Shown piece after piece: positions 2,360 to 24,440 of a DNA stretch of 26,324 nt (its first letter is position 1; the number at the start of each line of letters is the position of its first letter). The notes beneath the pieces are model-generated. The model did not search any database. It saw nothing but the letters and a program-made list of their open reading frames with translations, and had not been told where the DNA came from. Origin of the DNA: Tubiluchus corallicola (taxonomy: Eukaryota > Animalia > Priapulida); assembly GCA_030141605.1 (NCBI GenBank), contig JAQGDQ010001764.1, positions 1 through 26,324 of the forward strand. The letters run 5' to 3'. A program made the translations under genes and the position numbers.

Positions 2360-3058
2360 TTACAATAAGTACACTACATAGTTATAGGTAACATGACTGC
2401 TGCACTGAGGATCCTTGGATAAGACTATGATGGGGTAGGAAATTGCCACCATCTGTGTTAGGTGCGTCTCAATGATTCCAAGGGTTTGCCACTCTTTTAA
2501 AGAGTCTCTGTATCGTTGTTGTCGTTCTGGAGGCAACCTGTAGAAAGATCGACTATGTGCCAAGGCTTGTTGCTTAGTGAACTGTGGACGTTCGAACCCA
2601 GCCCATGGCAAAGTAGTCTCGTATCGACCATCAATGTGTTTGATGGATAAAGGAAACTCGTCCTTTTCCGTGTCAGGATGAATGTTCATGGACTCCAACT
2701 GCCACCAAGATTCACAGATATTGGCATCTGCATTCCTAGAGTACAGAGTGCGTACAAGAGGAACCAAGGAGGAATGTTGTGACAGGGAGTTAGGAACGCA
2801 ACCACTCAATGTCCAACCGAAGATGGTAGGAATCAGCATAAGATTGGAGTGGAAGATGGGAGCATTAGAGGTAAAGATGTGAGGAAGGGCATCATTACCA
2901 ACCAATACATCAATAGGCAATTGTAATTGACTGTAATCATCAGCATAATCTAAACCTTTTGGTAACGTAGTTAAGCACGACAATTCAACACCCTGAAGGG
3001 GTGAACATATGAAGGGAACAACCCAACAATTCATAAAATACCATTGATCATCATACAT
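2360..3058 (-). mobile_element. Degenerate BEL/Pao LTR-retrotransposon pol fragment (protease-to-RT linker region)
   Basis: Minus-strand translation has PIDVLVGND, LIPTIFGWTLSG, WWQLESMNI, DGRYETTLPW and YRDSLKEWQTLGIIE, in the order typical of BEL/Pao polyproteins. The expected (Y/F)LPHH motif is present in a shifted frame (DGGNFLPHHSLIQG, ~2412-2453), so the copy is frameshifted and truncated. No LTRs seen. Confidence 0.85.
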
Positions 3059-3132
3059 ACTACGCAGTTTGAACTCATATTTCTGTCTGTTAATTGAGGA
3101 AGTATTCTTCCCACCAAAAGTTTAAACTTGAA

Positions 3133-3220
3133 ACCCATCCAAGTACTAACCAGGCTCTACGTTGCTTAACTTCGGTGATCAAACGAGAACCGGTGTTTTC
3201 AACGTGATATGGCCGTAGAC
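3133..3220 (-). pseudogene. 5S rRNA pseudogene (5' ~88 nt, 3'-truncated)
   Basis: Reverse complement reads gtctacggccatatcacgttgaaaacaccggttctcgtttgatcaccgaagttaagcaacgtagagcctggttagtacttggatgggt, an invertebrate-type 5S sequence. Similarity stops after box C and the last ~30 nt are missing. Confidence 0.93.
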
Positions 3221-4714: not shown

Positions 4715-4826
4715 ATCTACGGCCATATCACGTTGAAAACATGGGTTCTCGTCTGATCACCGAAGTTAAGTAAAGTAGTACCTGGTTAGCATTGTATCGC
4801 CTAGGAATACCAGGTGAAGTAGGCTT
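4715..4826 (+). pseudogene. Degenerate near-full-length 5S rRNA copy, possibly the head of a 5S-derived SINE
   Basis: atctacggccatatcacgttgaaaacatgggttctcgtctgatcaccgaagttaag...cgcctaggaataccaggtgaagtaggctt. The box C region is partly deleted and there is no oligo-T terminator after it. Confidence 0.88.
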
Positions 4827-5870: not shown

Positions 5871-5924
5871 ATGACGTCACTGGTTGTGCTGATTTGCATC
5901 TTTTGCATAGTGAACAATTTTCAG
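5871..5924 (+). CDS. Small secreted Cys-rich peptide gene, coding exon 1 (signal peptide MTSLVVLICIFCIVNNFQ)
   Basis: aaacaATG start context, 18 codons with a hydrophobic core, strong donor cag|gtgaga, phase 0 matching the next exon. Confidence 0.75.
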
Positions 5925-6468
5925 GTGAGAATTTTACAACAGGTAACGCAAGTAGTTTTACAACAGGTAACAACAAAACAAATTTATTTTCAATGTCTGC
6001 AAGAATGAGATCTTAAAACTATTTGTGTTTAAAGGAAGACAGGATGATTTTTCATATACTCCCCAATTTTCAAATCCGATAAAAGGTCTACATTTTAATG
6101 CAATTAATACTGCAATGGCGTTTCTCAAATTAAATAATAGATTAAAATCTTAATTAACGGCGGGCGAGCCGAACTATTGATGACATCACAAACTAACATA
6201 ATTTTCAAAAGCAAAAATATTTGACGAGCGTGTTTGTGAAAGCGAGAATTAATTGTAGTACAGTGCTAAAATATTCACGTTTGCCGGTCTTAGTGCTTCG
6301 CTAAGCCGCGCGTAACTTAGAAAGTTTAACAAAATTTGAGTATCCGAGGTAATTATTATTTAATCGTAGCTTTGATTCAAAAATCCCATTGTAGTGTTCA
6401 ATATTTTTGAGCATTCTTTATTTTGAGCTAATGTCTACACAACTGTCCAGTTTTTCTTTTAAGGACCC

Positions 6469-7310
6469 GATGATTGTGTAAACACGAGTTCACAATAAAG
6501 TACGCTCTAAAATATTGAAAACTACAACAGCTTTTTTTAAATCAAAGCTTAGATTAAATAATAATTACCTCGGATACTCAACTTTCGTTAAACTTTCAAA
6601 GCTACTCGCGGCTTGGTGAATCTACTAAGATTGGCAACGGCGCTTTTTTGTCACGTGCACGTGGCCGACAAACAGAAGCCGGTACCGTGATAAGCATGAT
6701 CATGAACTGTTGTGTTAGTTTCTGACGTCATATGATGCAGAGCCCATTTTCGAGCTATCACGCGTTTAAGCAGTAACACTTACGCAAACGTGCTTGACGC
6801 GCAAGGGAAGACGCTTGACATCGCACAAACTGTGGTTAGTTTCTGACGTAAGCAATAGCTGTGTTTGGTTGCCGCTAATTAACTTTGTAAGCTAATTATT
6901 CAAATGTAAGAAACAATTGCTAACTTTTACAGGCAAGAAAATGTACATTTTGGACAGTAAAATAAAATGAGATTGAGTCTAAAGATTGAGTCCCTTGCAC
7001 GTCAAGCACATTTACGATTGGTGTCACGAAAATGGGCTCTGCATCATATGACGTCAGAAACTAACACAGCAGTTCATGATCATGGTTATCACGGTACCGC
7101 CTTCTATTTGTCGGCCACGTGCACGTGACAAAAAAGCGCCGCTGCCAATCTTAGTAGATTCACTGAGCCGCGAGTAGCTTTGAAAGTTTGACAAAGTTTG
7201 AGTATCCGAGGTAATTATTATTTAATCTAAGCTTTGATGTAAAAAAAGCTATTGTAGTTTTCAATATTTTAGAGCATTCTTTATTCTGAACTCGTGTTTA
7301 CACAATCATC
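6469..7310. mobile_element. Foldback/MITE-like long inverted repeat (arms 6469-6808 and 6991-7310), with a more diverged third partial copy at ~6150-6430
   Basis: Left arm gatgattgtgtaaacacgagttca...gtgcttgacgcgcaaggga is the reverse complement of right arm tcccttgcacgtcaagcac...tgaactcgtgtttacacaatcatc. 6283-6430 repeats part of the right arm directly (tttgagtatccgaggtaattattatttaatc). Confidence 0.9.
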
Positions 7311-7370
7311 CGCTTTTCCATTAAGTTTACATCTTCACTCAATGGTCACTATTATTATTATTATTAACAG

Positions 7371-7500
7371 ACTGCTCTGGGCTACGACGACTGCAGGGAC
7401 GACTCTGATTGTTCTCACACTGACTGCTGTCAAAACACCGTCATATACGTTCCATACAGAACAATCGGAGGGCAGATAAGAGTTGCCACGAAGCATATAA
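7371..7500 (+). CDS. Small secreted Cys-rich peptide gene, coding exon 2 (TALGYDDCRDDSDCSHTDCCQNTVIYVPYRTIGGQIRVATKHI)
   Basis: Acceptor ttaacag| and consensus donor |gtaagt. 130 nt, open in phase 0 and ending in phase 1. C-x5-C-x4-CC motif. More GC-rich than its flanks. Confidence 0.8.
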
Positions 7501-8223
7501 GTAAGTTTGAAGTTAAACATATTACATCACTGTGCGTTCAGAGTTAACTGCTGGTCAACAAGTCGACAAGAAAGTGAAAACTCTGACAGTTGCTGCGCAT
7601 TGTTGCCAGTGGGCCAGTGACGTAGTAAGTGCTTGTGGCGGAAGGGGGTGAAAAAACTTCTGGCGCCCTACCCTTTTAATGTTTTTGTCTTTTGTTGCAT
7701 TCTTGAAGCCGCAAACTGTGCTTTTTTGCGTCCCTTAACGCGACTTTCCTTTTTCGACATGATGGGGTAAAGATCATGCTGAGTTTGATTTGTGGTACTG
7801 CAGCAGAGTAACTCTTTTCTATCCATTAATTAATCGCAACACGACAGTCATTAAACATTCAGCTCCGGCATTAAAACTTGCAAAGATTATGAAAGATACA
7901 GAACACTTCAGGTTTTCACAATAATACAATCAGCATTTGGAGAAACGTCATTGTTTCTCACAAAATTATCCATCTGCTAAGCCACATGATACCCTATATA
8001 CACGGTTAAGTAACAATATTAGCCTTTTCCTAATCTGTACGTAGTAATTAAGTCGGTTAGGGTGATCTCTGACTAGGCAGTTTTATTGTAGGCTAAAAAC
8101 TTTTATTAATGTCGCATTAGTAATTAATAATTAACAGTCATTGAACTCTAGAAGAGTTCTCCCCTTCTCAAACTTGGGCCGGGAGGAGGTTGCCCATTGT
8201 CGGCCCCAGTTTGCTATAGGCAT

Positions 8224-10120
8224 TTGGTTGTTGCTGCGTGAATGCTTCGGCGTGTTACTCTAGACACTTAACCGAACTCGACATTCAACAGTAAGTTGTT
8301 GGTCTGCTGTGTCTAATGTGAACGCTTCGACGAGTTACTCTAGACACGTCTTAACCGAACTCGACACTCAACCGCAAGTTGTTGGTCTGCTGTGACTAGT
8401 GTGAACGCTTCGACGAGTTACTCTAGACACTTCTTAACCGAACTCGACACTCAACAGTAAGTTGTTGGTCTGCTGTGTCTAGTGTGAACGCTTCGGCGAG
8501 TTACTCTAGACACTTCTTAACCGAACTCGACACTCAACAGCAAGTTGTTGGTCTGCTGTGTCTAGTGTGAACGCTTCGACGAGTTACTCTAGACACTTCT
8601 TAACCGAACTCGACACTCAACAGCGTGTTGCTGGTCTGCTGTGTCTAGTGTGAACGCTTCGGCGTGTTACTCTAGACACTTCTTAACCGAACTCGACACT
8701 CAACAGTAAGTTGTTGGTCTGCTGTGTCTAATGTGAACGCTTCGGCGAGTTACTCTAGACACTTCTTAACCGAACTCGACACTCAACCGCAAGTTGTTGG
8801 TCTGCTGTGTCTAGTGTGAACGCTTCGGCAAGTTACTCTAGACACTTCTTAACCGAACTCGACACTCAACAGCAAGTTGTTGGTCTGCTGTGTCTAGCGT
8901 GAATGCTTCGGCAAGTTACTCTAGACACTTCTTAACCGAACTCGACACTCAACAGCAAGCTGTTGGTCTGCTGTGTCTAGTGTGAACGCTTCGGCGAGTT
9001 ACTCTAGACACTTCTTAACCGAACTCGACACTCAACCGAAAGTTGTTGGTCTGCTGTGACTAGTGTGAACGCTTCGGCGAGTTACTCTAGACACTTCTTA
9101 ACCGAACTCGACATTCAACAGTAAGTTGTTGGTCTGCTGTGTCTAATGTGAACGCTTCGGCGAGTTACTCTAGACACTTCTTAACCGAACTCGACACTCA
9201 ACAGCAAGTTGTTGGTCTGCTGTGTCTAGTGTGAACGCTTCGGCGAGTTATTCTAGACACTTCTTAACCGAACTCGACATTCAACAGCAAGTTGTTGGTC
9301 TGCTGTGTCTAATGTGAACGCTTCGACGAGTTACTCTAGACACTTCTTAACCGAACTCGACACTCAACAGTAAGTTGTTGGTCTGCTGTGTCTAGTGTGA
9401 ACGCTTCGACGAGTTACTCTAGACACTTCTTAACCGAACTCGACACTCAACAGCAAGTTGCTGGTCTGCTGTGTCTAGTGTGAACGCTTCGACGAGTTAC
9501 TCTAGACACTTCTTAACCGAACTCGACACTCAACAGTAAGTTGTTGGTCTGCTGTGTCTAGTGTGAACGCTTCGGCGTGTTACTTTAGACACTTCTTAAC
9601 CGAACTCGACACTCAACAGCAAGTTGTTGATCTGCTGCGTCTAGTGTGAACGCTTCGGCGAGTTACTCTAGACACTTCTTAACCGAACTCGACACTCAAC
9701 AGCAAGTTGTTGGTCTGCTGTGTCTAATGTGAACGCTTCGACGAGTTACTCTAGACACTTCTTAACCGAACTCGACACTCAACAGCAAGTTGTTGGTCTG
9801 CTGTGTCTAGTGTGAATGCTTCGGCGTGTTACTCTAGACACTTCTTAACCGTACTCGACACTCAACAGCAAGTTGTTGGTCTGCTGTGTCTAGCGTGAAT
9901 GCTTCGGCGTGTTACTCTAGACACTTAACCGAACTCGACACTCAACTGCAAGTTGTTGGTCTGCTGTGACTAGTGTGAACGCTTCGGCGTGTTACTCTAG
10001 ACACTTCTTGACCGAACTGGACACTCAACCGCAAGTTGTTGGTCTGCTGTGACTAGTGTGAACGCTTCGGCGAGTTACTCTAGACACTTCTCAACCGAAC
10101 TCGACACTCAACAGCAAGTT
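8224..10120. repeat. 83-bp tandem satellite, ~23 copies, in intron 2 of the peptide gene
   Basis: Unit gttgttggtctgctgtgtctagtgtgaacgcttcggcgagttactctagacacttcttaaccgaactcgacactcaacagcaa recurs at e.g. 8461 and 8544 (period 83). Confidence 0.98.
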
Positions 10121-10239
10121 TTACTCTCTCGTCTGAACGCGCTTTAACGAGTTACTTGACGAATTAAGTTAACGTGGTTTTATTCGCCGACCAATAGTGA
10201 ATCTTTTTAGTAATTGATGCACTGTAACGTTTAACTCAA

Positions 10240-10910
10240 GTGAATGAGAAAATGAACGAATCAATAATATAGTATGAATGAATGAATAAATGAATGAATG
10301 GACAGATGAATAAGTGAATGAATGAATGAATGAATGAATGAATGAATGAATGAATGAATGAATGAATGAATGAATGAATGAATGAATGACTGAATAGACA
10401 GCTGAATGAATGAATGAACAAATTATTAAAAGAATGAATGAACGAATGAATGAACGAATGATGAAAGAAAGAAAGAAAGAAAGAATAAATGAACAAGTGA
10501 ATGAATGAATGCATGAACGAGTGAATAAAGGAGTATGAATGAATGAATTAAGGAATGAATAAATGAGTGAAAGAATGTATGAATGAATGAATAAATAAAT
10601 AAATAAATGAATGAATGAATGAATGAATGAATGAATAAATGAATAAATAAATAAATGAATGAATGAATAAATAAATGAATGAATGAATGAATGAATGGAT
10701 GAATAAATAAATGAATGAATGAATGAATGAATGGACGGATGAATAAGTGAATGAATGAATGAATGGATAAGCGAATAGATGAATAAGTGAATGAATGAAT
10801 GAGTGAATGAATGAATGAGTGAATGAATGAATGATTGAATAAATGAACAAGTGGACGGATGAAAAAATGAATGAATGGGCGGATGAATGACCCAATGAAT
10901 GAATGAATAA
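10240..10910. repeat. Imperfect (GAAT)n/(AAAT)n microsatellite
   Basis: Direct reading. Source of the HSFI-repeat ORFs on the minus strand. Confidence 0.98.
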
Positions 10911-10982
10911 ATTAGCGAAATAGTGTATTAATAAAAGAATAAAGCGTCTTCAGTTGATTAAAGGATGTATGCATCTTTTCAG

Positions 10983-11005
10983 AGAAATGCAGGCGGTGCC
11001 CTTAA
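10983..11005 (+). CDS. Small secreted Cys-rich peptide gene, coding exon 3 (KKCRRCP-stop)
   Basis: Acceptor catcttttcag|. Phase-1 join gives a+ag aaa tgc agg cgg tgc cct taa, which supplies Cys5 and Cys6. AATAAA occurs downstream at 11394 and 11490. Confidence 0.7.
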
Positions 11006-11393
11006 CTTTGACATTTCATACGAATCCAAATTGCACTGGAGGTTACATGGATCCTGGAAACCAAGCAACTAGTAGTGGATGCACCATTGCTGGGTGGATT
11101 TGATGAAAAAATTTATGAAAAATAGAAAGAATGCTAATTTAACGTTAATTAAACATGCTGTTTACTGAGACCAGACGACATTTCGATACAATTTTCGTTG
11201 TCAATGTTCAAAATGAAGCCAAGACGAAATAATCGGTACATTTACGTTCCTGCAATTACCAAGACACAAAAAAACATTGATGTCACGTGACGTCTGCACT
11301 CAGTAAAGAGCATGTTGATTTATACAGGCTGAATCTTTCATGTATTTAATATTTTAATTGTATAAAATTTGAGGAAATTGTTTGCAATTACTG

Positions 11394-11399
11394 AATAAA
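11394..11399 (+). promoter_or_regulatory. Candidate polyadenylation signal of the peptide gene (alternative at 11490-11495)
   Basis: AATAAA ~390 nt after the stop codon. The motif is common in AT-rich DNA, so support is weak. Confidence 0.35.
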
Positions 11400-11486
11400 C
11401 CGATTTCAATTAAGAGAACATGTATTGCTGTGTTCCTATAATCAGTTAAGCAAACTTAGTTCCAACCAACAACAAGTTGCGTGACT

Positions 11487-11637
11487 GGTAATAAAGTTAA
11501 AGGAAAAGTCACCACAATTTTTGCCATGAAAATGTTAACGTTAGTGTTAGGGATTAGGATTAGAGTTAGGGTAAAGGTTATTTCGTTTTACCAGTGCCTC
11601 TTTTACCAGTGCCTCTTTTACCTGTGACTTTTTTACC
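11487..11637. repeat. Short element with inverted ends, a degenerate TTAGGG-like tract and 15-bp direct repeats
   Basis: aaaagtcac (11504) and gtgactttt (11624) are inverted. Internal ttagtgttagggattaggattagagttaggg, and ttttaccagtgcctc x2.5. Confidence 0.5.
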
Positions 11638-11880
11638 TGCATTAGTTTTATGATCGTATGTCATTGATGTTGACGTTGCGTGTTGAATGGTTTTGTTAAT
11701 ATTCCCAGTTCATCGTTTCGTACAGAATTCTTCAAGCACAAGACAACCCTTCACTTAGAGAAGGCTCAAAAAAATTCGTCTTAAATGATATACTAGTTTA
11801 AATAAGTACCACTATACCACTTTATACCAGTTGAGCAATACGTAACTTCAATTGTACTTTAGTTTCAGTTACGTATTGCT

Positions 11881-11977
11881 CATAGGAAAAACGTTACAAA
11901 AAATCGGGACCGGTGTTGGTGGTTCCTTATAAGCAAGTGTCCTTTATAAGCGAGTACCTTATAACCAAGGTTGACTG
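11881..11977 (-). mobile_element. Solo terminal fragment of the Tc1/mariner-type MITE family seen at 17527-18090
   Basis: Ends ...ccttataaccaaggttgactg|ta. Reverse complement aligns with 17527-17606 (cagtcaacct...actcgcttataa...ccaacacc-gtcc-gattttt...tttttcctatg). Confidence 0.8.
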
Positions 11978-12107
11978 TATGTTAAAATGTGGGATGCCTA
12001 AATATACCGTCATTTCACTGGTTGTAACATCTTTGTAAATCTGTAGCAGTTACCACCTTTAGTCACCATTTTTAAACCACCCTTTCGTTTTTTTTCTTTT
12101 CTTGCAG

Positions 12108-12265
12108 TTGCTCCTAATTCGATGACGCACACCTACTTTCCCAGCTATCAGAACGGAACCGAAATCGTCGTCGTCGGACGTTTGTCGGACCCGACTTCTG
12201 CGGGACGATTTTTCGGCAAAGTCGAGGGCAAGGGAGCGTATGGAGTGGTCACCTACGTTACCGAG
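12108..12265 (+). CDS. ITIH-like (inter-alpha-trypsin inhibitor heavy chain family) internal exon A: xAPNSMTHTYFPSYQNGTEIVVVGRLSDPTSAGRFFGKVEGKGAYGVVTYVTE
   Basis: Long polypyrimidine tract plus ttgcag| acceptor and gag|gtaacg donor. Matches the post-vWA ITIH motif T..F..Y..GSEIVVAG[KR]L. Enters in phase 1, exits in phase 0. Confidence 0.9.
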
Positions 12266-12731
12266 GTAACGTCCAGCGCATTGTCTTTGTATTTGGGTGA
12301 AACTCTGGTGATTTTGTGGCATGGGGATCGTCTTTTTGTCGCATCGTCAAGTTTTCTTGTATTATCAATTCAATTCAATTGTAATTTATTTATCTCTTTA
12401 TAATACTACAATAAAACATGATTAATGAAAGAGTCGCTAATAAGTTTTGAAGAATGGTTAAAATGTATAGATAGATCTAGAACTAGAGAAAGGATAGCGA
12501 AAAGACTATAAAGTCACCTAGTCTGCTATACATTAGGTATATACTCTTTCATTCCCTAGGTACCGTACCACAATGTTGTTACCTTACTTCAAACGTATAC
12601 CAATTAGGAAATTTGCTCAGTAATTATATTTAAGATTTAAATATGGTTGTACTTTAGATCAAAACGAAAATGTAAAATTAAAAATTAAGAACTCATTTAA
12701 AGATTATGTTTTCAGATATTACAACACTGTA

Positions 12732-13071
12732 CAGTCAACCCTCGTTAAACCGGACTAATTGGGGGGGGTGTCCGGTTTAGCCGATTGTCCGATTTATCCG
12801 ATATGCCTATATATGGTGTATATTATACAGGAATAATCACCTTAATAAGGCCTATATAAATTGCACTATATACTGTACACTATATACTATACTGTATATT
12901 ACTTTAAAATAGTTAACCTGTGAGGATAAAGAAATTATTGTACAGTTGGTAGGCCGTGTTGTGTTTAGCGCTCCGGCTCGGACGGAAATTGCTCAGTTTC
13001 CTTTACCACGGATGACGTCCGTCTTATCCGATATCCGGGCTAACGGGGTTCGGTTTAACGAGGGTCGACTG
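12732..13071. mobile_element. Tc1/mariner (pogo/Tigger-like) MITE, 340 bp
   Basis: 21-bp TIRs cagtcaaccctcgttaaaccg / cggtttaacgagggtcgactg (1 mismatch), with TA on both sides. Confidence 0.92.
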
Positions 13072-13404
13072 TAATTAAATTTAAGATTTAAATATGGTTG
13101 TACTGTAGATCTAAACGAAAATGTAAAATTAAACGTTAAGAACTCATTTAAAGATTATGTTTTAAGATATCTATTATAGCTTCTTACAACACTGTATAAT
13201 CTAATATAATTACAAGGGAACTACAATGTGTGGTTATTATAAAGTTGAATGTCTGTAGATATGTTACTTTACTAACATCGCATTACCTGTTTTACTAACA
13301 TCTTTATCTTTGTAAACTGTATGTTTTTATACGAAATAAACTCATAATAATAATAATTAGTAGATAAGATTAGAGTATGGCATTCTGACCCACAAAATGT
13401 CTAG

Positions 13405-13846
13405 CAGGAGTGTGCAAATTATCTGACTAGCAGGGCCACATTAAACTTTCCGGCAATTCCTGCGGGCCACAGGCAGTTTGATCAAGGAATCAAGTACAGA
13501 AAGGCCTAATAACGATTTTTTTGCATCCGACCTGCGTACATTACAAATTTATATTACAAACCATATATTTCTACTTTCAGGACAGATACTGGTAATTTCA
13601 TTACAATGCATATTAGTAATGTGTATCACACAGTCTGTGTAGTACAGTGACATTAAGCTACAACCGCCGATCTAGTAGAAAAAACTACCAGCACTGTCTT
13701 TGGGATCGTGGCATGGACTTCAGCTGGATACACTCAATTAATCGCCCGGGCCTCACTTTCATTAGGTTGACAAATCTCTTCGCGGGCCGCACAAATTCTC
13801 TCGGCGGGCCGTAAGTGGCCCGCGGGCCGCAATTTGCACACCCCTG
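13405..13846 (-). mobile_element. hAT-type MITE, copy 1 (inverted relative to 21781-22280)
   Basis: TIRs caggagtgtgcaaatt / aatttgcacacccctg, subterminal gcgggccg repeats. The internal sequence is the reverse complement of copy 2. TSD is degenerate. Confidence 0.9.
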
Positions 13847-13898
13847 GTGTAGAGTGTAGACTTGCCTTTATGATTTTTGCGACAATCTATTATTTTAG

Positions 13899-14066
13899 AA
13901 TGAGGTGGACACGGTACCTTCACAACAGACTGGTGAGAGGAAAGGTTTCGTTGAGAGAACCTGGGCCTATCAATGGGTGCAGGAGCTGCTAAATAAGAGA
14001 AACGTTGCACCTGCCGAGGAGGAAAAGCAGAAATTGCACGATCAGGCTTTAGAGGTCTCTCTAAAG
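13899..14066 (+). CDS. ITIH-like exon B: NEVDTVPSQQTGERKGFVERTWAYQWVQELLNKRNVAPAEEEKQKLHDQALEVSLK
   Basis: ttttag| acceptor and aag|gtgcgc donor, phase 0/0. Matches the ITIH motif ERLWAYLTIQQLL...AL.LSLKY. Confidence 0.93.
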
Positions 14067-14824
14067 GTGCGCCTTCGTAACGAGCTAACGTGATTTTGTG
14101 TATTGTGTTGTAAAAGTTTTGAAGCGCGTGCTATAGATGGCGTTGTTTTGCTTGTCTTTTTTGAAGTAGTAGTCGCGATTCAGTTTTCTGCCCTTAGTAC
14201 GAACAAGTGGTCGGTATCATTGGTCTGCGTTTGAATTCTTAGACAGTTTGAGGATTCAATTTTCTGTTAGGGGAGTTGGGAAAGCGATAAGTTGCTGTTT
14301 CGTTTGGCTCTATTGTAGGCCGAGCCAAGCGAAACTGATGAACAGTTACCGCAACGCAGAATAAATTCCTATCTTATCTTTATCCATCTTATCTTATCAA
14401 TAAAAACAAGTAGTATGTATCTTTTGTCTTTGTTTCACGTCCTCTCGTGAATTTTGTGTAGACAAGTCAACTTCTGATGTGTTTCCCTTTTGGAAGCCTG
14501 TCAGAAACTCACCCCGGCGGCGGGAATTGTTACTGTGGTGCTCCGGACAGAGAAAAAGAATGCATACTAAAAATCTCGGTAATTTTTTGTTTCGTATCCA
14601 TGTCAGATCCATGTAGTGAATCCGTGTCAAATGTGAACAGTTTGGACCACCAACTAACTGAAAAGTGATTCCACTTCTGATAGTCTATTATTATTACTAA
14701 AAGAAGTGTGAGGAAGGGACTCGATCTGGATTTGAACCGGAGCCTTTGTATTAATTTTTATTACAAATCCAGGCTTATTCTAGACTCCACGTATGAATAA
14801 ACAAATGATTTTTCGCCGTTTCAG

Positions 14825-14915
14825 TACAACTTTGTCATTCCGGGTCTCACCGCTCTCATCGTCGTGGAGCCGGATCGTGACGAAGTCCGCGGCTTGGAGA
14901 ACCTTGGCGACGAAC
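14825..14915 (+). CDS. ITIH-like exon C: YNFVIPGLTALIVVEPDRDEVRGLENLGDE
   Basis: tttcag| acceptor and aac|gtacgt donor, phase 0/1. Continues SLK|Y and matches the ITIH motif Y.FVTPLTSMVVTKP. Confidence 0.88.
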
Positions 14916-15376
14916 GTACGTTTTTTCATTGTTTTAGTGAATGCAAGCAGTATCTTAGATGCTTTGCTGAATAACTGTCTGTTTGACTGTGTGAATGACC
15001 TTGGTGATGAACGTACGTTTTTTCATTGCTTTAGTGATTGTAATCAGTATCTTGGATGCTTTGCTGAATGACTGTGTGTTTGACTGTGTGAATGACCTTG
15101 GCGACGAACGAACGGTTTTGTCATTGCTTTAGTGATTGTAATCAGTATCTTAGATGATTGGCTGAATGACTGTGTGTTTGACTGTGTGAATGACCTTGGC
15201 AACGAACGTACGGTTTTTTCATTGCTTTAGTGATTGTAATCAGTATCTTAGATGCTTTGCTGCATGACTGTGTGTTTGACTGTGTGAATGACCTTGGTGA
15301 CGAACGTACGTTTTTTTCATTGCCTTAGTGATTGTAATCAGTATCTCAGATGCTTTGCTGCATGACTGTGTGTTTG
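14901..15376. repeat. 97/98-bp tandem repeat, ~4.9 copies, overlapping the 3' end and donor of exon C
   Basis: accttgg unit starts at 14901, 14998, 15095, 15193 and 15291. Confidence 0.95.
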
Positions 15377-16391
15377 CGATAATGTTACAGGACCAGAATT
15401 TCGACGCGAATTTCTGGATGCATTCGCGTAAACGTTCGCGCTAATGCCCATTACCACGAATCCGGTAAGATTCGCGCGTTGGTTTTAACCGAATGTTAGA
15501 AAAATAAAAGAAATGCAGCAAGTCCTTGCCTAAAGACCCTAATATGGGAATCAGCAAAATTCTAAATGGCTCGCAAACTAAATCAGGAAATGTTAGGTCT
15601 CATTCTGAAAAAGATGTCATCGCCGATAGTGATTACTTCTTATAATAAATCACCGTAAGCGAAAATCAGTGTTCGCCGTTTCAATAGCGATAATTCATCG
15701 CAGTTGAACTCTGGAAGTTTCGACTTTGATTTTCTGGTTCTTGTAAAAAAACCTCGGCGGGAATCTGTCTAGATTCTGTCAAAAAGTAACGAAGTTCTGG
15801 CCCTGTGTTTTTGGAGCGGAGTTTTGGAGCAGGTGTGAGATTTGTCACGTTTGAAATTTTGTGACTGAAATTTTGTGTAAAAATGTAGGCTGTACTTTGT
15901 TGCCTAGGCATCTGTCTGCACAGAATAAAGTCAAAATGGATAAAGCTGTAATCAGCAAATGTGGCAGAGAGATAGGCTTGGGCGAGCCTTAGAAACCAAA
16001 TGCTTTTTGGTGTTTAGAGTGAAATATCACGGTCACAAGATCAAAATTGTCAAAAGTTCTGCCTGTTGTGACCTCGCTTGTCTGTTCGTGGGTTCTGCAC
16101 GTTTGTAGCACTCTCTAGTGGTGCGTTTAGACTGGCGAGTTTTTTCTCTGACCGCCCGACTCACAAGTGTGAACTGCTTTGCGAATTACTTTCGCTAAGT
16201 TATTGCAAGTTGCTGTCAGTTGATTTCCTGCGAGTTACTCTCGACACCTCTCGCAGCGACATGAGAACTGAGTGTCAGATCGTGCTTTCTGTCTGAGAGT
16301 AACTCGCAGCAAGTTTTGCTTTCTGGTTTGAACACCGCTTGCGAGTTACTTGGCAAGAAAGCTCGCCAATGTGAACGAGCCATAATTATTA

Positions 16392-16927
16392 CCGTATATA
16401 CTCGCATATAAGCCTACATCGCATCTAAGCCGACCCCCTAAAACTGCTTTAAAATGGCCAGTTTTTGCAAAAACCCGTATATAAGCCGACCATCAACTTG
16501 TCTAATTTTACTCCATAGCCAATCAACAAAATTGATCCCTTTTTGTTACGTTTTCTTTTTTTTCCAGGCATGGTGTATTGCACAAATAATTTTACAACTA
16601 AAATTATCAAAATTCAGCACACTTTTAAATTCTGTGGCCGCGTGCTCACGTTTGCCTCATTGGTTTGCTGTTCCTCTATAACCACGTGACCCTCATCTCC
16701 CCTACCACCACTACTACCACTAGCTTCACGTCGGCTTCACCACTAGCTGTAGCTTGGTTACGGCTCGCAACTGGTGACACACAGTGGTGTATTGCTAAAT
16801 AAAAAGTAGGTGGACGGCTAGTGTCTGTCCTTGTGTTCATTTTGTTTCATGCGCATATACGCAGACTCCCTGATTTCAGTATTGTATTTTATAGTTCTAA
16901 ATTCGGCTTATATGCGAGTATATACGG
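16392..16927. mobile_element. Tc1/mariner (Tc2/pogo-like, CCGTA termini) MITE, 536 bp
   Basis: Perfect 23-bp TIRs ccgtatatactcgcatataagcc / ggcttatatgcgagtatatacgg, with TA on both sides. Confidence 0.93.
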
Positions 16928-17143
16928 TACTTATTATGAGCATATATGTGTTATACATGTTTTTCTCTCTTGTAATTTTAAATTTATGCAATATTGTTGT
17001 ATGAATTTTACGAGCACCGATGCTTGTGTACTTTTTTAGCAGTCATTCTAAAGGATAAATACTGTCATTTTCATTTTCCTCAAAAACACAGTGTCACTCG
17101 CTTATTGTGTGTTTGTTAATGACTTTTTATTTGAACTTTTTAG

Positions 17144-17233
17144 CCGAACACGATAACGAGCGTTACAACACGAGATACGCATCTCCCAAATCCACCGCTG
17201 GGCGGGGACGCGGAGGCGGGCGTGTCCATTCCG
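17144..17233 (+). CDS. Probable ITIH-like linker exon D: (P)EHDNERYNTRYASPKSTAGRGRGGGRVHS
   Basis: tttttag| acceptor and ccg|gtaatt donor, GC-rich. Phase 1/1 bridges exons C and E and gives V-DNDPHF. No conserved motif, as expected for the variable ITIH linker. Confidence 0.65.
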
Positions 17234-17526
17234 GTAATTTGTCGGTCGACTACACTGATTATGTTGACTATTCAGATTATGTCGACTATTCAGATTGGGT
17301 CGTCTACACTGCTTATGTCGAAAGAGCAGATGTTCAACACTTTGTTTACGTAACATGTCTAGCTCTTATCTTTCTCGTTTGTTTTTGAATTTCTTTTTCC
17401 AACTATGTGCAAGTCTTTTGTGTTTTTGAGACGTTTGCGTCGCTTCGTAACTTTTATCTAACGTACTTTGCATAGTACGCCCTACTTCCGTATTTAAAAT
17501 ACCGGGTGTTTTAGTACTTTTAGATA

Positions 17527-18090
17527 CAGTCAACCTCGGGTGTAAGATACTCGCTTATAAGGGACCGCCAACACCAGTCCTGATTTTTCATAATGTTTTT
17601 CCTATGTAAAAATCTTCGTATATAAGGTACTCGGATATAAGGGACTTTCGCTTATAAGTTACTACCAACACCAGACCTGATTTTTCGTAGTGTTTTTCCT
17701 ATGTAAAAACCTTCGTATATAAGGTACTCGGATATAAGAGATTTTCGGTTATAACGGACGATATCTTCAGGTCCCCCATAATAGAAACCCAGGTAAATTA
17801 CCTCGCATATAAGGGATCCTATGATCAAAGCGAAATTGATCGATTTTTAATCTCAATTTTTCGCAAACTCGACCTTCGAACAGTTCGGTTTCCATGGTCA
17901 CATACATTTCGCATCACTGAAGCAGCTTCCTACATACCGTTTGCACTGAATGTGTAGCAATAATCCATAAAAATATGGGTAAAAGTACAGAAAAGTACAG
18001 GACTTGATACACCCTTGGTCTGACTTCACTTCGGATATAAGGGACGGTTTTTTCCAATCCGGAGGTGTTGCTTATATCCAAGGTTGACTG
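17527..18090. mobile_element. Tc1/mariner (pogo/Tigger-like) MITE, 564 bp, with an internal tandem duplication
   Basis: TIRs cagtcaacctcgg / ccaaggttgactg with TA flanks. Subterminal ctcggatataagg repeats. The block ccaacaccag...ttataa is duplicated at ~17568 and ~17665. Confidence 0.9.
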
Positions 18091-18532
18091 TACAACCTAC
18101 TTCCGTGTTTAAAATACCGGGTGTTTCAAAAGTGTCTCATTATTTTTAGATATGCGTTAAATATTATTAGCAGTTGCAGCTGGAACTAAATTTGCTGAGT
18201 CTGTAAATCATGGAAACCTTCCTGATATGAAACTTGGCTTCATAAGTCGACCTGCAGTCATTTTAATTTGTACCTGCATACTGTACCGCACTTTTTTTCT
18301 GCACAGCTGTGCAGTGGTTTTGCACCTCTGCTTTATGGTCAGCATGTTAGCTGAAAAAAATGACTCGAAACTTCAAAATGTAGACTCAAAAATATTCACC
18401 GCTGCTGAGCACATATTTACCGCAAGGTAAACATCAGTGGATGATTCTTGTGTTTTATGCAAGAATAATTATGCACTAAGATGCCTGGGATATAGGCAAA
18501 TGTCATGAACAAAAAAGTGGAGCAATGGAAAA

Positions 18533-18705
<173 letters not shown>

Positions 18706-19235
18706 GGTTCTGTGAGCAGCAGCAATAATAACCTGCTTAAAGCACAAGAAATCCCTCCACTGACATCAAGTTTAAAAAATCTGTCTTGAAATTTTATACC
18801 ATTTACATACTGCCTTTTTGTATGCAGGGCGTAATTCGGCAGTAACGGTGTATAAAACTTGTAAATTTAGACTGCTTCGATGACTATTAAGCTCAGCCAT
18901 TTTAATAGTAGATTGTTTGAAACAAGTTTAGATAACATTGCGTGAAGTTTCACATAATCAGAGCATTCGTAGCACACATATTGCTAACTAAGTAAAATTT
19001 TTAATCGCTGTACCTTGTCAATGAGATTAAAATATGTTTTCGCGTGTATTCGCAAAATTACTCTTGTTGAACGTACTAAAAAAACTATCCATGTTGCATT
19101 TTTATGTGCTTTTGCATGCGTCTATTCATCTAATATTATCTGTTGTCTAATATATTTCTTACGGCGTCTAAAATTGCATGACTATTCTGATGATGTTGTA
19201 CCTGTCAGAGTTGGCATTTTTATTTCTTCCTATTT

Positions 19236-20717
19236 ACCACTGGGCGTCCGTTCCATCCCGTCAACATCGACTACGTCTGCACCACTGCGTGTCTGTTCCA
19301 TTCCGTCAATGTTGACTACGTCTGCACCATTGAGTGTCCGTTCCATCCCGTCAACGTCGACTACGTCTGCACCATTGAGTGTCCGTTCCATCCCGTCAAC
19401 GTCGACTACGTCTGCACCACCGGGCGTCCGTTCCATCCCGTCAATGTCGACTACGTCTGCACCACTGGGCGTCCGTTCCATTCCGTCAATGTTGACTACG
19501 TCTGCACCACTGGGTGTCCATTCCATCCCGTCAACGTCGACTACGTCTGCACCACTGGGTGTCTGTTCCATTCCGTCAATGTTGACTACGTCTGCACCAT
19601 TGAGTGTCCGTTCCATCCCGTCAATGTTGACTACGTCTGCACCATTGAGTGTCCGTTCCATCCCGTCAACATCGACTACGTCTGCACCTCCGGGCGTCCG
19701 TTCCATCCCGTCAACATCGACTACGTCTGCACCTCCGGGCGTCCGTTCCATTCCGTCAATGTTGACTACGTCTGCACCACTGGGTGTCTGTTCCATTCCG
19801 TCAATGTTGACTACGTCTGCACCATTGAGTGTCCGTTCCATCCCGTCAATGTTGACTACGTCTGCACCATTGAGTGTCCGTTCCATCCCGTCAACGTCGA
19901 CTACGTCTGCACCTCCGGGCGTCCGTTCCATCCCGTCAACGTCGACTACGTCTGCACCACTGGGTGTCTGTTCCATTCCGTCAATGTTGACTACGTCTGC
20001 ACCATTGAGTGTCCGTTCCATCCCGTCAATGTTGACTACGTCTGCACCACAGGGCGTCCGTTCCATCCCATCAATGTCGACTACATCTGCACCACTGGGC
20101 GTCCGTTCCATCCCGTCAACGTCGACTACGTCTGCACCACCGGGCGTCCGTTCCATCCCGTCAACGTCGACTACGTCTGCACCACTGGGCGTCCATTCCA
20201 TCCCTTCAACGTCGACTACACGTCTGCACCACTGGGCGTCCGTTCCATCCCGTCAACGTCGACTACGTCTGCACCACTGGGCGTCCATTCCATCCCTTCA
20301 ACGTCGACTACGCCTGCACCACCGGGCGTCCATTCCATCCCGTCAACGTCGACTACGTCTGCACCACTGGGTGTCTGTTCCATTCCGTCAATGTCGACTA
20401 CGTCTGCACCACTGGGTGTCCGTTCCATCCCGTCAACATCGACTACGTCTGCACCACTGGGCGTCCGTTCCATCCCGTCAATGTCGACTACGTCTGCACC
20501 ACTGGGCGTCTGTTCCATTCCGTCAATGTCGACTACGTCTGCACCACTGGGTGTCTGTTCCATTCCGTCAATGTCGACTACGTCTGCACCACTGGGCGTC
20601 CGTTCCATCCCGTCAACGTCGACTACGTCTGCACCACTGGGCGTCCATTCCATCCCTTCAACGTCGACTACGCCTGCACCACTGGGCGTCCGTTCCATCC
20701 CGTCAACGTCGACTACA
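19236..20717. repeat. GC-rich 45-bp minisatellite, ~33 copies
   Basis: Unit ccactgggcgtccgttccatcccgtcaacgtcgactacgtctgca gives 15-aa periodicity in the ORF track. A single 2-bp insertion lies at ~20220. Confidence 0.98.
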
Positions 20718-21055
20718 GCAGTGGTTTGAAATCAATCGACGTAATACGGCCCAACGCAGACGAGACGGTCAAGACGCCTAGTTCTGTTGCTGACCACAGT
20801 GTTGATTTCTGTGTTTATCTAATTATGGTTTTCATTTTTCTGCTGATCTGCTAATGAATTCCTTTTCTGATTTCATGCGTGTCGTTTCACGTTTTTCAAA
20901 ATTTCTGTGCTGCTTTAGAATTTTTATTAATAGAGGTTATATGTTACGTTCTAACTGCTATGTTCAAAAAGTTACTAGAGATGTGCACTTTCTGTTGTCT
21001 ATTTCCTCTATTTCTAAGTTTTTCTGTCTATTGTTTATTAGTGCATGTGCGTGTA

Positions 21056-21612
21056 CAGTGTTCCCTCACTTATCGCGGGTGTTCCGTTCCAGGCCCGCCC
21101 GCGAAAGTGAATTTCCGCGAAGTAGGGCCGCTATGCTTACATGTTTGGGTGGCATCGTACGGCTTGAATAAATTCAGTCTCTAAAGAAAACAAATTGCAC
21201 GGTATCTGAGCCAATCAGAGACTGGGATACAGAGCAGCATTCTCTGGTTGGTCGCTTTCCACCAATCAACCAATCGTGTGTTGTGTACAATCTCACGACG
21301 GCAAGTAGCATCTCACGAGGTAGAAAAGTAGTACATTTCGTTTTTGGTGTGTATTCATCCGCCGAATAAATACACTATTTACTGTGAATGGTAATTTTTT
21401 TATGATTTATAATATTTTATGCAAAATTCATCAAATCTATACACTACTGTACAATACGTACTACGCATGTGCAAAAATACTTTAGACGGAGTACCGCAAA
21501 AATGCGCGAAAAAGCGAAAATACCGCGATAAATATTTTACATTAATATTTTTGAAAACCCGCGAAACAGCGAGTCCGCGATAAACGAACCGCGAAGTAGC
21601 GAGGGAACACTG
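21056..21612. mobile_element. Tc1/mariner (Tigger-like) MITE, 557 bp
   Basis: TIRs cagtgttccctc / gagggaacactg, extending imperfectly to tcgcgg/ccgcga. TA flanks and subterminal ccgcga repeats. Confidence 0.9.
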
Positions 21613-21780
21613 TAATTGATCACTTACATTCTTGGCCCAAAATGGGAGCCTTCTCGACTTTTTTTTGTAATCTGCAGTTCAGATCTTCAAGTAACAAGTT
21701 TTTTGTATTACTGTTTTATTGCTTTGAGACTAGTCGGCTTAAATAGCTATAATATTAACCTTGTGTTGATGCCCGTATGA

Positions 21781-22280
21781 CAGGGGTGTGCAAATTGCGG
21801 CCCGCGGGCCACTTGCGACCCGCCGAGAGATTTTGTGCGGCCCGCGAAGAGGTTTGTCAACCTAATGAATGTGCGGCCCGGGCGATTAATTGAGTGTATC
21901 CAGCTGAAGTCCGTGCCACGATCCCAAAGATAGTCCGGGTAGTTTTTTCTACTAGATCGGATGCCATTAACCCTTACAAGACGGTTGTAGCTAAATGTCA
22001 CTGTACTACACAGACTGTGTGATACACATTACTAATATGCATTGTAATAAAATTACCACTATCTGTCCTGAAAGTAGAAATATATGGTGTGTAATATAAA
22101 TTTCAATAACTTCTAAAATAGTTTCTTGAGTGTAGTAGTAATGATGTACACAGGTCGGATGCAAAAAAATCGTTATTAGGCCTTTCTGTACTTGGCTCCC
22201 TGATCAAACTGCCTGTGGCCCGCAGGAATTGCGGGAAAGTTTAATGTGGCCCTGCTAGTCAGATAATTTGCACACGCCTG
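21781..22280 (+). mobile_element. hAT-type MITE, copy 2, 500 bp
   Basis: TIRs caggggtgtgcaaatt / aatttgcacacgcctg. Perfect 8-bp TSD ccgtatga at 21773-21780 and 22281-22288. Confidence 0.96.
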
Positions 22281-23240
22281 CCGTATGATCTGCAAAATAG
22301 TGTGTGTTTTTTGTCAAATAGTGCAAAATTAGTTATGTAATTTTTGCTAACATCTGCGCATTTTTTGCTACAATATATTTCTACATAAGTTTTATTAAAG
22401 ATTGCTTAATATTAAACGTTTTACATTATTACAGATTATCATGACATTCAAAATTATATGCTTATATTTTATATAGTTTTATTTGTAGTCAAAATTAATA
22501 TTTTAATAAATGTATCTCATAGTAGTAACTCGTTTTCTATTGAATTTTCTCAAATAGCTAAGAAATATACATAAAACAGCAATTTATAAGCAATTGTGTT
22601 GTCTATATTTGCATGCTGTAGAATTCGTTTCATAACTTGTTTTCATTTCTCTCATTAGATGGCAGCACATGAATACATTGCATGTATGGGTACACAATTG
22701 TTAAACAAGAGGTTATACACTGTTATTAGTGTGACTGCACCCCATAATTGTGATCATGAATTTTTTTCTGGAAATCAACTGCTTTATTTTATAATGATGT
22801 TTAAAACCAGTGAGCATACTTTAAAATATTATATTAGCTTCTTTGCTTGTACACCACAGATACTTTATTTTGCTGATTAACTTATAAAAGTCTATTGAAT
22901 TTTTGAAATGAAATTTTATTTGATTTTTTTTGCACTTTTGTGCAATTTACTTTAAACATTGCTTAATTATAGGTTTTTTGCTGATTAAAAAACAGTAAAT
23001 ATTTATAGACATCGTAGTTTTTGCAAGAGTTTTGACCGAAATTTTAATTCTGTGTCGTTTAAGTAGATTGCTCTGCGTGTTGAAAGTGATAAAATATTTT
23101 TTGGCTATTAGATTTGCCATCAAACGATTTCTTTTTTAGCCATCGTGTCGCGATGAAACTGACCGTAAAGTAGTTTTGAAACAGGTATTTCTTTATTTTT
23201 CTTATTAGTTATTTATTCTACTTCTTTCTTTATTTGTTAG

Positions 23241-23354
23241 TTGACAACGACCCTCATTTTGTCGTGAAGTTGAAAGGAAGTAAAATGGCGGTGTGCTTCA
23301 CGATCAACGGGAAACCCGGACAGATCCTGAATCTGATCAGCGACGCCAAGAACG
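23241..23354 (+). CDS. ITIH-like exon E: (V)DNDPHFVVKLKGSKMAVCFTINGKPGQILNLISDAKN
   Basis: Polypyrimidine tract plus ttag| acceptor and acg|gtgagc donor, phase 1/1. Matches the ITIH motif VD.DPHFII.....LCFNI...PG..L.L..D. Confidence 0.95.
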
Positions 23355-23514
23355 GTGAGCGCAATTTAAACTTTAATAGATTTATTTCCCAGTGATGGTT
23401 GCATGCTGCAGAAAATGAGGGGAAAAGTAAAGGAGGATAAAAGAGGTTAGTGAGATGAGTTTTTTCAAACTCGAAACTAGAAGTTTTACTCTCAAGTCGC
23501 GGGAGAAATATTTA

Positions 23515-24108
23515 ACGGACAAGAAAAGGGGCGCCTGAAGTAGGTTTCAGAAAAATCGCCTTAAAAAATTATATTACTTTGCAGCAATTTTATGCGTTTA
23601 TCTTACTCGCACTGAAAGGAATTTTAGTTTGTTTTCATTTTAAATCTCCCGCAATACTGTTCCGAAGTCGCCATTACATGACATCATGTAGCAAACGTAA
23701 ATCAAGGGAAGAAAAGGCAATGTTAAATTATGTCTCAAAAGCCTTTCCGTGCAAATCTATATTACTTAGATTTTCGCTTACCTACTAGAAAGACTTATGT
23801 AACTAGAAAAGAAAATTATTAATTATTTAAAATGTTTTCACCAATTGGTAAAACGTCGCTGACTCACCCTCCAGGGAGCACCACTCACTAACCAAAAAAT
23901 GTATTTTTAATCTTATTGACAAGATACAGTAATTTTAAATTTTATTTAGTTAGAGGCTTGTGTGCTACGAATGCTCTGATTATTTTTTCAAACTTTACAA
24001 AATGTTATTTAAACTTGTTTCAAATGACCTGTCGTGAAAATGGCTGCGTCTAACGGTCATCGCGGGAGTTTAAATTTACATATTTTATACAGCGTGACTG
24101 CCGACGCT
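23515..24108 (+). repeat. Dispersed repeat, copy 2 (see 3420-4007)
   Basis: Colinear similarity with 3420-4007 along its whole length. Confidence 0.9.
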
Positions 24109-24230
24109 AAATATCTTAGCGTCAGTTTCTGTCTAATGTAAAGCCCAATAACTGGAAATTCTTCAAAGCTGCAATAAAAATTTGCGTTTTAGACTTACCG
24201 TCGTTTATTAAAGTCGCCTTTTATTTGTAG

Positions 24231-24440
24231 GTTTTTACGTCACCGGAGAAATCATTGGTGTTTCCAGCAAACTCCACGGAAAAGGATCAAAAGACAGGAC
24301 TTACTTCGGTACCGTCGTCGTATCCGTGAACGGTTACAGTCTGCAGTTTTCGCCCGACGAGATAACGACGAGCAACGGCCTGCGTCTGAGCTGGAAGAAA
24401 CATTCTGGTCTACTCCGGAGGGATGTTAGCATGAAGATCG
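24231..24440 (+). CDS. ITIH-like exon F (C-terminal ITI heavy-chain domain): (G)FYVTGEIIGVSSKLHGKGSKDRTYFGTVVVSVNGYSLQFSPDEITTSNGLRLSWKKHSGLLRRDVSMKI
   Basis: tttgtag| acceptor, phase 1. Matches the ITIH motif G..VNGQ.IG.......RTYF........I......SW. The 3' boundary is uncertain (gtactg at 24441 or gttagc at 24425). The gene continues beyond the window. Confidence 0.9.

Follow-up and report, generated by a model that had tools for sequence, protein, structure and literature searches.

A candidate three-exon gene for a secreted six-cysteine peptide, probably nested in an ITIH-like gene of Tubiluchus corallicola

Between positions 5871 and 11005 of the window, i.e., the whole 26,324-nucleotide stretch of Tubiluchus corallicola DNA analyzed here, an initial annotation had linked three short exons as the gene of a secreted six-cysteine peptide. 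The locus raises the question of whether these exons form a gene of their own, belong to a longer gene, or reflect chance, and what their product might do. Rechecking of the letters gave the same three exons, GT-AG sites, phases (0 and 1), and 68 codons. What the annotation had overlooked was the context: exons resembling those of an inter-alpha-trypsin-inhibitor heavy chain (ITIH) gene lie directly downstream on the same strand.

5871..5924, + strand: exon 1, coding part; start codon, hydrophobic core of the predicted signal peptide, phase-0 donor
6469..7310, no strand assigned: inverted-repeat element in intron 1 (297-base arms, 93%)
7371..7500, + strand: exon 2; predicted end of the signal peptide, C-x5-C-x4-CC, larger part of the predicted beta-hairpin; entered in phase 0, left in phase 1
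8238..10912, no strand assigned: 83-base tandem array plus ATGA microsatellite, taking up most of intron 2
10983..11005, + strand: exon 3, coding part; Cys5, Cys6, stop codon; the least secure exon
11006..11495, + strand: putative 3' UTR; poly(A) signals AATAAA at 11394 and 11490, end not fixed
12108..12265, + strand: ITIH-like exon, post-vWA part of Hybrid1; phase-1 acceptor; best PDB match human ITIH1 chain 482-516 (E 1.5, weak by itself)
13899..14066, + strand: ITIH-like exon, Hybrid2 helices; ITIH1 chain 547-586 (E 0.0019), ITIH4 (E 0.0068)
14825..14915, + strand: putative ITIH-like exon, in frame with its neighbors and assigned by frame and position; no family match
23241..23354, + strand: putative ITIH-like C-terminal exon, placed by frame; no match alone
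24231..24440, + strand: ITIH-like C-terminal exon; PF06668 ITI_HC_C (E 3e-6, 27.4 bits versus a cutoff of 27)

In the peptide gene model, the start, stop, frame, and all four splice sites are intact. Exon 1 comprises 18 codons, beginning with an ATG in an A-rich context and ending at the donor CAG/GTGAGA, which ranks 16th among 1746 GT sites. Exon 2 (43 codons plus 1 base, with four cysteines) lies between a modest acceptor (ACAG/, rank 88 of 1327) and the donor A/GTAAGT; its GC content of 0.48 exceeds that of the immediate flanks (0.28 upstream, 0.43 downstream). Exon 3 follows the acceptor TTTTCAG/, the fifth best among 238 AG sites in 7541-12110, finishes a lysine codon, and adds six codons, including two for cysteine, before TAA. 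Splice scores of exons 1 to 3 fell inside the range of the ITIH-like exons, and exon GC contents of 0.48 and 0.52 compared with 0.28 to 0.34 in most flanks. Within the window, no second copy of the exon regions was found, nor one of 11006..11495 except for a 35-base internal inverted match. Judged from these sequence features, the three exons are likely to constitute a small independent gene with the predicted splicing.

The chance occurrence of such exons was estimated on both strands of 18,086 non-tandem bases with 60 shuffles, using textbook splice weights; the filter regained just two of the six ITIH-like exons used (12108 and 23241). With thresholds chosen after the exons had been seen, none of the 60 shuffles contained an in-phase pair of a signal-like first exon and a C-C-CC exon. 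The ATG at 5871 opened the sole signal-like first exon in the non-tandem window (shuffle mean, 0.07), with a best 10-residue hydropathy of 3.77. Exon 2 was likewise the only internal exon with C-C-CC in the real sequence (0 in 60 shuffles); at least four cysteines by itself was not unusual (1 real exon versus 0.52 per shuffle). For exon 3, the probability of a chance match was about 0.07: among the six good acceptors before the ITIH exon, only this one yields two early cysteines, and it alone also adds a stop, with AATAAA signals coming after it. Exons 1 and 2 beat chance; exon 3 is less secure. We consider it quite unlikely that these exons represent a silent relic, or sites brought together by chance in an intron rich in repeats, a reading which is favored by the empty homologue searches described below, the post hoc thresholds, and the modest acceptor of exon 2, but which is opposed by the absence of the exon 1-2 pair from all shuffles, the intact frame, start, stop, and splice sites, and the single-copy state of the exon regions in the window.

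Read coverage was examined in two sequencing runs. One contig of run X1 (of unknown kind) was colinear over 7314-7449, and X1 contained half of 10 words sampled from exon 2; in run X2, which we guess to be an RNA run, next to none of these words occurred and exon 2 was not covered. In both runs, 10915-11446 and the ITIH-like exon bin 12112-12244 were uncovered, which has no bearing on splicing either way. The aligned stretches of X1 and X2 contained no joint at 7500 or 10983, and the 5924/7371 junction lies outside both stretches.

How the peptide exons relate to the ITIH-like gene depends on where the 5' half of the latter is located. No VIT or vWA exon was found in 83 scanned frames, 80 of which were + strand frames of 2.2-12.5 kb. 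Because of this result, and since the window begins inside a 137-base array, the ITIH 5' half is likely to lie outside the window, and the peptide gene is therefore probably nested in an intron of the ITIH-like gene. Same-strand nesting occurs in human, with 75 nested parallel pairs among 749 overlapping pairs, and selection acts against same-strand overlaps (PMC2330155). A sequence search for relatives of an ITIH-like exon gave none, and fold prediction of the ITIH exon alone was of low confidence. Complex prediction pairing exon 2 and the ITIH exon 12110-12265 scored 0.00 and was counted neither for nor against any relationship.

The acceptor at 12108 ranks second of 1327 and is the strongest in the interval (score of 8.0 versus 3.1 at exon 3). 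This suggests another arrangement, which we regard as unlikely: exons 1 and 2 might provide the ITIH-like gene with an alternative 5' end, with exon 2 spliced to 12108 and exon 3 either a minor terminal exon or a product of chance. The resulting protein would be secreted and ITIH-like, without VIT and vWA domains but with a four-cysteine hairpin as its head. The phases of exon 2 and 12108 are compatible (the split codon encodes Ile), and the peptide exons lie on the ITIH strand of a window in which other ITIH 5' exons were not found. Two strands of the Hybrid1 domain in human ITIH1 come from sequence preceding vWA (PMC7170535), and a hairpin could, speculatively, take their place. However, the ITIH1 domains matching the downstream exons are interleaved with residues 45-287 (PMC7170535), so that a chimera would leave these domain parts without most of their partner strands. 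Neither the whole of exon 2 nor parts of it showed similarity to solved ITIH chains, and PDB and Pfam searches linked it to none of the VIT, vWA, and hybrid domains; a weak search found no longer protein carrying exon 2, and exon 3 makes the cysteine set even, at the base of the hairpin. No search supported a resemblance between the hairpin and the strands that precede vWA in ITIH. It appears very unlikely that both uses coexist, i.e., that a new scaffold (half-colipase cap plus 25-residue cationic hairpin) is encoded by exons which, in the case of exons 1 and 2, also serve as an alternative ITIH head; a single locus would then produce the peptide on its own as well as an ITIH variant that lacks VIT and vWA.

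For the independent nested gene, which we prefer, the claimed cysteine spacing C-x5-C-x4-CC-x25-C-x2-C was reproduced, with cysteines at mature positions 4, 10, 15, 16, 42, and 45 and loops of 5, 4, 0, 25, and 2 residues (loop 4 having 25 and loop 5 having 2). The mature part would comprise 46 residues, given predicted cleavage after A-L-G; the signal features read from the sequence are the hydrophobic core (3.77) and small residues at -3/-1. The proposed contrast between an acidic N-terminal and a basic C-terminal half also held: six Asp fall within the first 16 residues, and residues 17-46 contain 7 Lys/Arg and zero acidic residues and are rich in Val, Ile, and Tyr. AlphaFold, run on exon 2 alone, agreed with the suggested long beta-hairpin, predicting strands at 20-26 and 32-38 (pLDDT 88 and 79; residues 21-39). 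The cysteine region of this model, whose input was without exon 3, was of low confidence (pLDDT 51-57). The strand limits imply a register i+j of 58-59, and Cys42 and Cys45 would hence lie opposite the Cys15/Cys16 pair. We infer a disulfide-directed-hairpin cap (Cys1-4, Cys2-5, Cys3-6); a ladder of Cys1-2, Cys3-6, and Cys4-5 also fits this geometry.

All homology and fold searches used exon 2 only, and short queries are weak. No relatives were found by a word-index search at near and longer lengths, by phmmer against 1.84 billion representatives (0 at E 0.001), or by a PDB sequence search. Pfam and NCBIfam gave nothing, with no Pfam family at E 10. Foldseek gave no match for exon 2 (best E of 2.2), and fold comparison with VIA returned 0 of 48,161 at Z 2. 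Of 133 metagenomic pattern matches, one was discarded because it ran on the opposite strand of an 812-amino-acid bacterial frame, which, from reading its sequence, we take to resemble a TonB-dependent receptor. A viral pattern scan gave 12 loci, none like a small secreted peptide of this spacing. Nor did any search support a resemblance between the hairpin and the second finger of mucin cystine knots. The suggestion of an undescribed family stands insofar as no known family matched in the libraries searched, but it rests on one gene. No homologue or paralogue keeping the cysteine pattern was found with which to demonstrate selection on the frame, and this counts against the explanation preferred here. 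The gene is probably real, with a lineage-specific, disulfide-rich product of putative function.

We propose that the nested gene encodes a secreted 46-residue peptide in which three predicted disulfides would clamp a predicted long cationic beta-hairpin. This hairpin (residues 17-46) would be the working part, likely binding microbial surfaces in defense, and part of its charge would be hidden by the Asp-rich cap. As a whole, this combination of nested gene, clamped hairpin, and defense role is the best explanation, with about an even chance of being correct; provided that the gene is real, the defense role itself comes close to even. Among marine antimicrobial peptides, cationic hairpins closed by disulfides form a main class (PMC10608444); a net charge of merely about +2 speaks against the role. 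Alternatively, with gene and fold retained, the peptide might be a ligand, inhibitor, or toxin binding a receptor, channel, or enzyme via its hairpin, resembling long-loop venom peptides or one half of a prokineticin/colipase domain. We rate this as rather improbable. The low net charge fits a protein ligand; the colipase fold is built from a pair of disulfide-directed hairpins, a motif also present in a spider toxin family, where its loop spans 17 residues (bioRxiv 10.1101/485722); and neurotoxins make up most Swiss-Prot peptides with C-C-CC-C-C (PMC4558851). The Atlas neighbors of exon 2 were knottin toxins, with scores of 0.81 or less, but a third of shuffled proteins reach 0.8, and a psi-conotoxin match to the cysteine part was not significant (E 1.1). 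The empty Pfam, PDB, and fold searches, the lack of a pro-region and of a tandem paralogue in the window, and the absence of any sign that the animal is venomous also weigh against a ligand or toxin. The C-C-CC-C-C order does not predict function: synthetic MgCRP-I peptides showed neither antimicrobial nor toxic activity (PMC4558851).

If real, the gene would provide a small secreted peptide whose cysteine spacing differs from that of every family checked; its three disulfides would carry an unusually long hairpin as a natural scaffold. Cysteine-rich, lineage-restricted peptides are common in invertebrates, and a single orphan is therefore of moderate interest; it would be more surprising if the ITIH-like gene also used the exons of this peptide. 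The gene also illustrates a blind spot of open-reading-frame scans and of motif screens limited in loop length, such as the MgCRP-I transcriptome screen with its loop maximum of 10 residues (PMC4558851).

Among known systems, the inhibitor cystine knots (conotoxin framework VI/VII and spider knottins) share the C-C-CC-C-C order, given exon 3; the long loop 4, two-residue loop 5, and absent fold match speak against a standard knottin. The MgCRP-I peptides of Mytilus are likewise short, secreted, and lineage-restricted, with six cysteines in C-C-CC-C-C order, and loops 1 and 2 fall within their consensus C(X3-6)C(X1-7)CC(X3-4)C(X3-5)C (PMC4558851). The last loops of 25 and 2 residues lie outside it, and whereas MgCRP-I members have a ∼15-residue pro-region ending in KR or RR and all cysteines in the last exon (PMC4558851), the present peptide has neither, its cysteines being spread across two exons. 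The opening C-x5-C-x4-CC, which is also that of prokineticins, is a generic module that occurs in repeat proteins on viral contigs as well, and so it is no sign of prokineticin kinship. The hairpin predicted to follow the CC pair is similar to one of the two disulfide-directed hairpins in the prokineticin/AVIT/colipase fold, but the peptide is without the AVIT start, exon 2 is without a Pfam, PDB, or fold match, and six cysteines contrast with the ten that the colipase fold requires (PMC6425005), which excludes prokineticin identity. Beta-hairpin antimicrobials such as arenicins, tachyplesins, and capitellacin weigh about 2.5 kDa and contain one or two disulfides, polychaete members being released from BRICHOS precursors (PMC10608444). 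In contrast, the predicted peptide has 46 residues, an acidic cysteine cap, and no BRICHOS domain, such a precursor being excluded because 68 codons leave no room for it; what it would share with them is a cationic, Val/Ile/Tyr-rich hairpin with a Gly turn and a cysteine-closed base.

The three exons of the candidate six-Cys peptide gene (5871-5924, 7371-7500 and 10983-11005, +) were found where the initial annotation had placed them, the GT-AG borders and the phases (0, then 1) likewise agreed, and counting in the spliced sequence confirmed its loops 4 and 5 of 25 and 2 residues. The spliced frame comprised 68 codons, with a Lys codon split over the putative second junction (7500/10983); its predicted mature part had 46 residues and a net charge of about +2. 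Two AATAAA signals were present 3' of the stop codon, at 11394 and 11490. Repeats made up most of both introns: intron 1 carried an inverted-repeat element, and intron 2 an 83-base array together with an ATGA microsatellite. No second copy of the exon regions was found within the window. In one sequencing run (X1), a single contig (depth 3, three differing letters) was colinear over the intron 1/exon 2 border at 7314-7449; one of its letter changes turned the first codon of exon 2 from Thr to Ala, which in a single contig may be an error. The segment 7621-8178 was matched by many divergent X1 contigs and was repeat-like.

Using generic textbook splice-site weights, the donors of exons 1 and 2 ranked 16th and 40th of 1746 GT sites, and the acceptors of exons 2 and 3 ranked 88th and 26th of 1327 AG sites. 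The scores of all peptide exons fell inside the spread of those of the ITIH-like (inter-alpha-trypsin-inhibitor heavy chain) exons downstream. Chance tests covered 18,086 non-tandem bases on both strands and 60 local Markov shuffles. Within these bases, the sole signal-like first exon started at 5871 (0.07 expected), and exon 2 was the sole internal exon with C-C-CC. The in-phase exon 1-2 pair arose in none of the 60 shuffles, with thresholds chosen after the exons had been seen. Four Cys alone in an internal exon would be expected 0.52 times by chance, and the exon filter picked up just two of the six ITIH-like exons. Of the 237 AG sites upstream of the ITIH exon, 4 yielded two Cys within the first seven codons; among the six well-scoring acceptors, 10983 alone did so (chance about 0.07; base rate, 24/1886). 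Since the exon pair was never reproduced by shuffling, versus a chance of about 0.07 for exon 3, support is good for exons 1 and 2 and moderate for exon 3. That the peptide exons are a relic is quite improbable.

Downstream, a divergent ITIH-like gene was represented by its 3' half (12108-24440, +), with at least six in-frame exons:

12108-12265, + strand, ITIH-like exon; best PDB match ITIH1 chain 482-516 (E 1.5)
13899-14066, + strand, ITIH-like exon; match to ITIH1 (E 0.0019)
14825-14915, + strand, ITIH-like exon placed by frame
17144-17233, + strand, ITIH-like exon placed by frame
23241-23354, + strand, ITIH-like exon placed by frame
24231-24440, + strand, ITIH-like exon; match to PF06668 (E 3e-6)

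A search with one of these exons found no close relative. The ITIH-like gene marks the source as an animal. According to PMC7170535, the solved ITIH1 chain comprises residues 35-672 together with a 22-residue tag (660 residues in all); by this numbering, exons 12108 and 13899 match precursor residues 494-528 and 559-598, just past the vWA domain (288-477). Among 80 plus-strand frames of at least 28 codons at 2.2-12.5 kb outside arrays, none was recognized as a VIT or vWA exon, a search that shorter or very divergent exons could escape. Because the window starts inside a 137-base array, the 5' half of the ITIH-like gene is probably located beyond the window, and the peptide gene would probably be nested in an ITIH intron of over 12 kb. 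Nesting on the same strand is known yet disfavored (PMC2330155 and PMC11694760). Alternatively, exon 2 could be spliced to 12108 in an ITIH chimera: this junction is in phase, and the acceptor at 12108 scores 8.0 versus 3.1 at exon 3. However, ITIH hybrid domains are built from stretches on both sides of the vWA domain (PMC7170535), and the product would lack most of these; we consider the chimera unlikely.

Several other elements were observed in the window. A contig from a second run, guessed to be RNA (X2; 170 bases, depth 117, six other letters), matched 14823-14890 from the acceptor AG of exon 14825, with just three letters upstream of the match, too few to infer a splice. A 98-base tandem array (14901-15376, 4.9 copies) had units copying the end and donor of exon 14825-14915, and a possible small exon near 15391-15427 did not match the ITIH-like phase chain. 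A 45-base minisatellite (19236-20716, 32.9 copies) contained long open frames, one Ser/Thr-rich, and its unit frame shifted once; it occupies a possible ITIH linker place and could be a mucin-like exon or non-coding. Two degenerate 5S rRNA copies lay in opposed orientations (3104-3220, -; 4715-4825, +), and a high-copy repeat element was present in two inverted copies (13404-13846 and 21781-22281). A 253-codon frame (2360-3121, -), with only a sub-threshold Pfam match to DUF3106, resembled an LTR-retrotransposon fragment.

The long beta-hairpin proposed initially was also predicted by AlphaFold from the mature 39-residue part encoded by exon 2 alone, without alignment. Strands spanned residues 20-26 and 32-38; pLDDT was 88 and 79 across residues 21-39, and 51-57 in the Cys region. 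Pairing the strands end to end, or placing the turn at Gly-Gly, gave i+j = 58 or 59. From these strand limits, Cys15 and Cys16 would face positions 42-44, and exon 3 brings Cys42 and Cys45; this register argues for exon 3 without reliance on splice scores. The disulfides could form a directed cap (1-4, 2-5, 3-6) or equally a ladder (1-2, 3-6, 4-5). Fold searches with the 39-residue fragment gave a best E of 2.2 and, in a second search, 0 of 48,161 at Z 2; for so short a query these nulls mean little. Most likely, an independent gene nested in the ITIH-like gene, a reading drawn from one gene known here from sequence, would make a secreted peptide in which an acidic disulfide cap would hold a cationic, hydrophobic hairpin that would bind microbial surfaces.

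Searches for relatives, all with exon 2 alone as query, found none in the word-index database (near and longer lengths) or among 1.84 billion representatives, and no match in PDB, Pfam, or NCBIfam. Its Atlas neighbors were knottin toxins, with scores of 0.81 or less, inside the shuffle range. That the peptide is a ligand or toxin seems rather unlikely. A single metagenome locus was rejected as a chance match on the opposite strand. The opening module C-x-D-D-x-D-C-x4-CC also occurred in Cys-rich proteins on viral contigs, so the C-x5-C-x4-CC opening, previously taken as prokineticin/AVIT-type, is generic and no sign of such kinship. One viral contig (IMGVR_UViG_3300006923_000059:6690-7706) carried tandem Cys-rich modules, C-x5-C-x4-CC-x4-C, with a next loop of 4 residues. 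Word searches of the open-access literature turned up neither this spacing nor a case of a peptide gene within an ITIH gene, which does not prove absence.

The available parts of PMC8004829, PMC12846013, and PMC13208793 contain no family with this Cys spacing. A nemertean peptide with the C-C-CC-C-C order is on record. MgCRP-I shares the Cys order, but the window peptide lacks its consensus, pro-region, and exon layout (PMC4558851), and colipase-fold proteins have ten Cys in contrast to six here (PMC6425005). The window peptide is about twice as large as the antimicrobial hairpin peptides of marine animals (PMC10608444), and a spider family with a disulfide-directed hairpin and a 17-residue loop provides a precedent for the long loop (bioRxiv 10.1101/485722).
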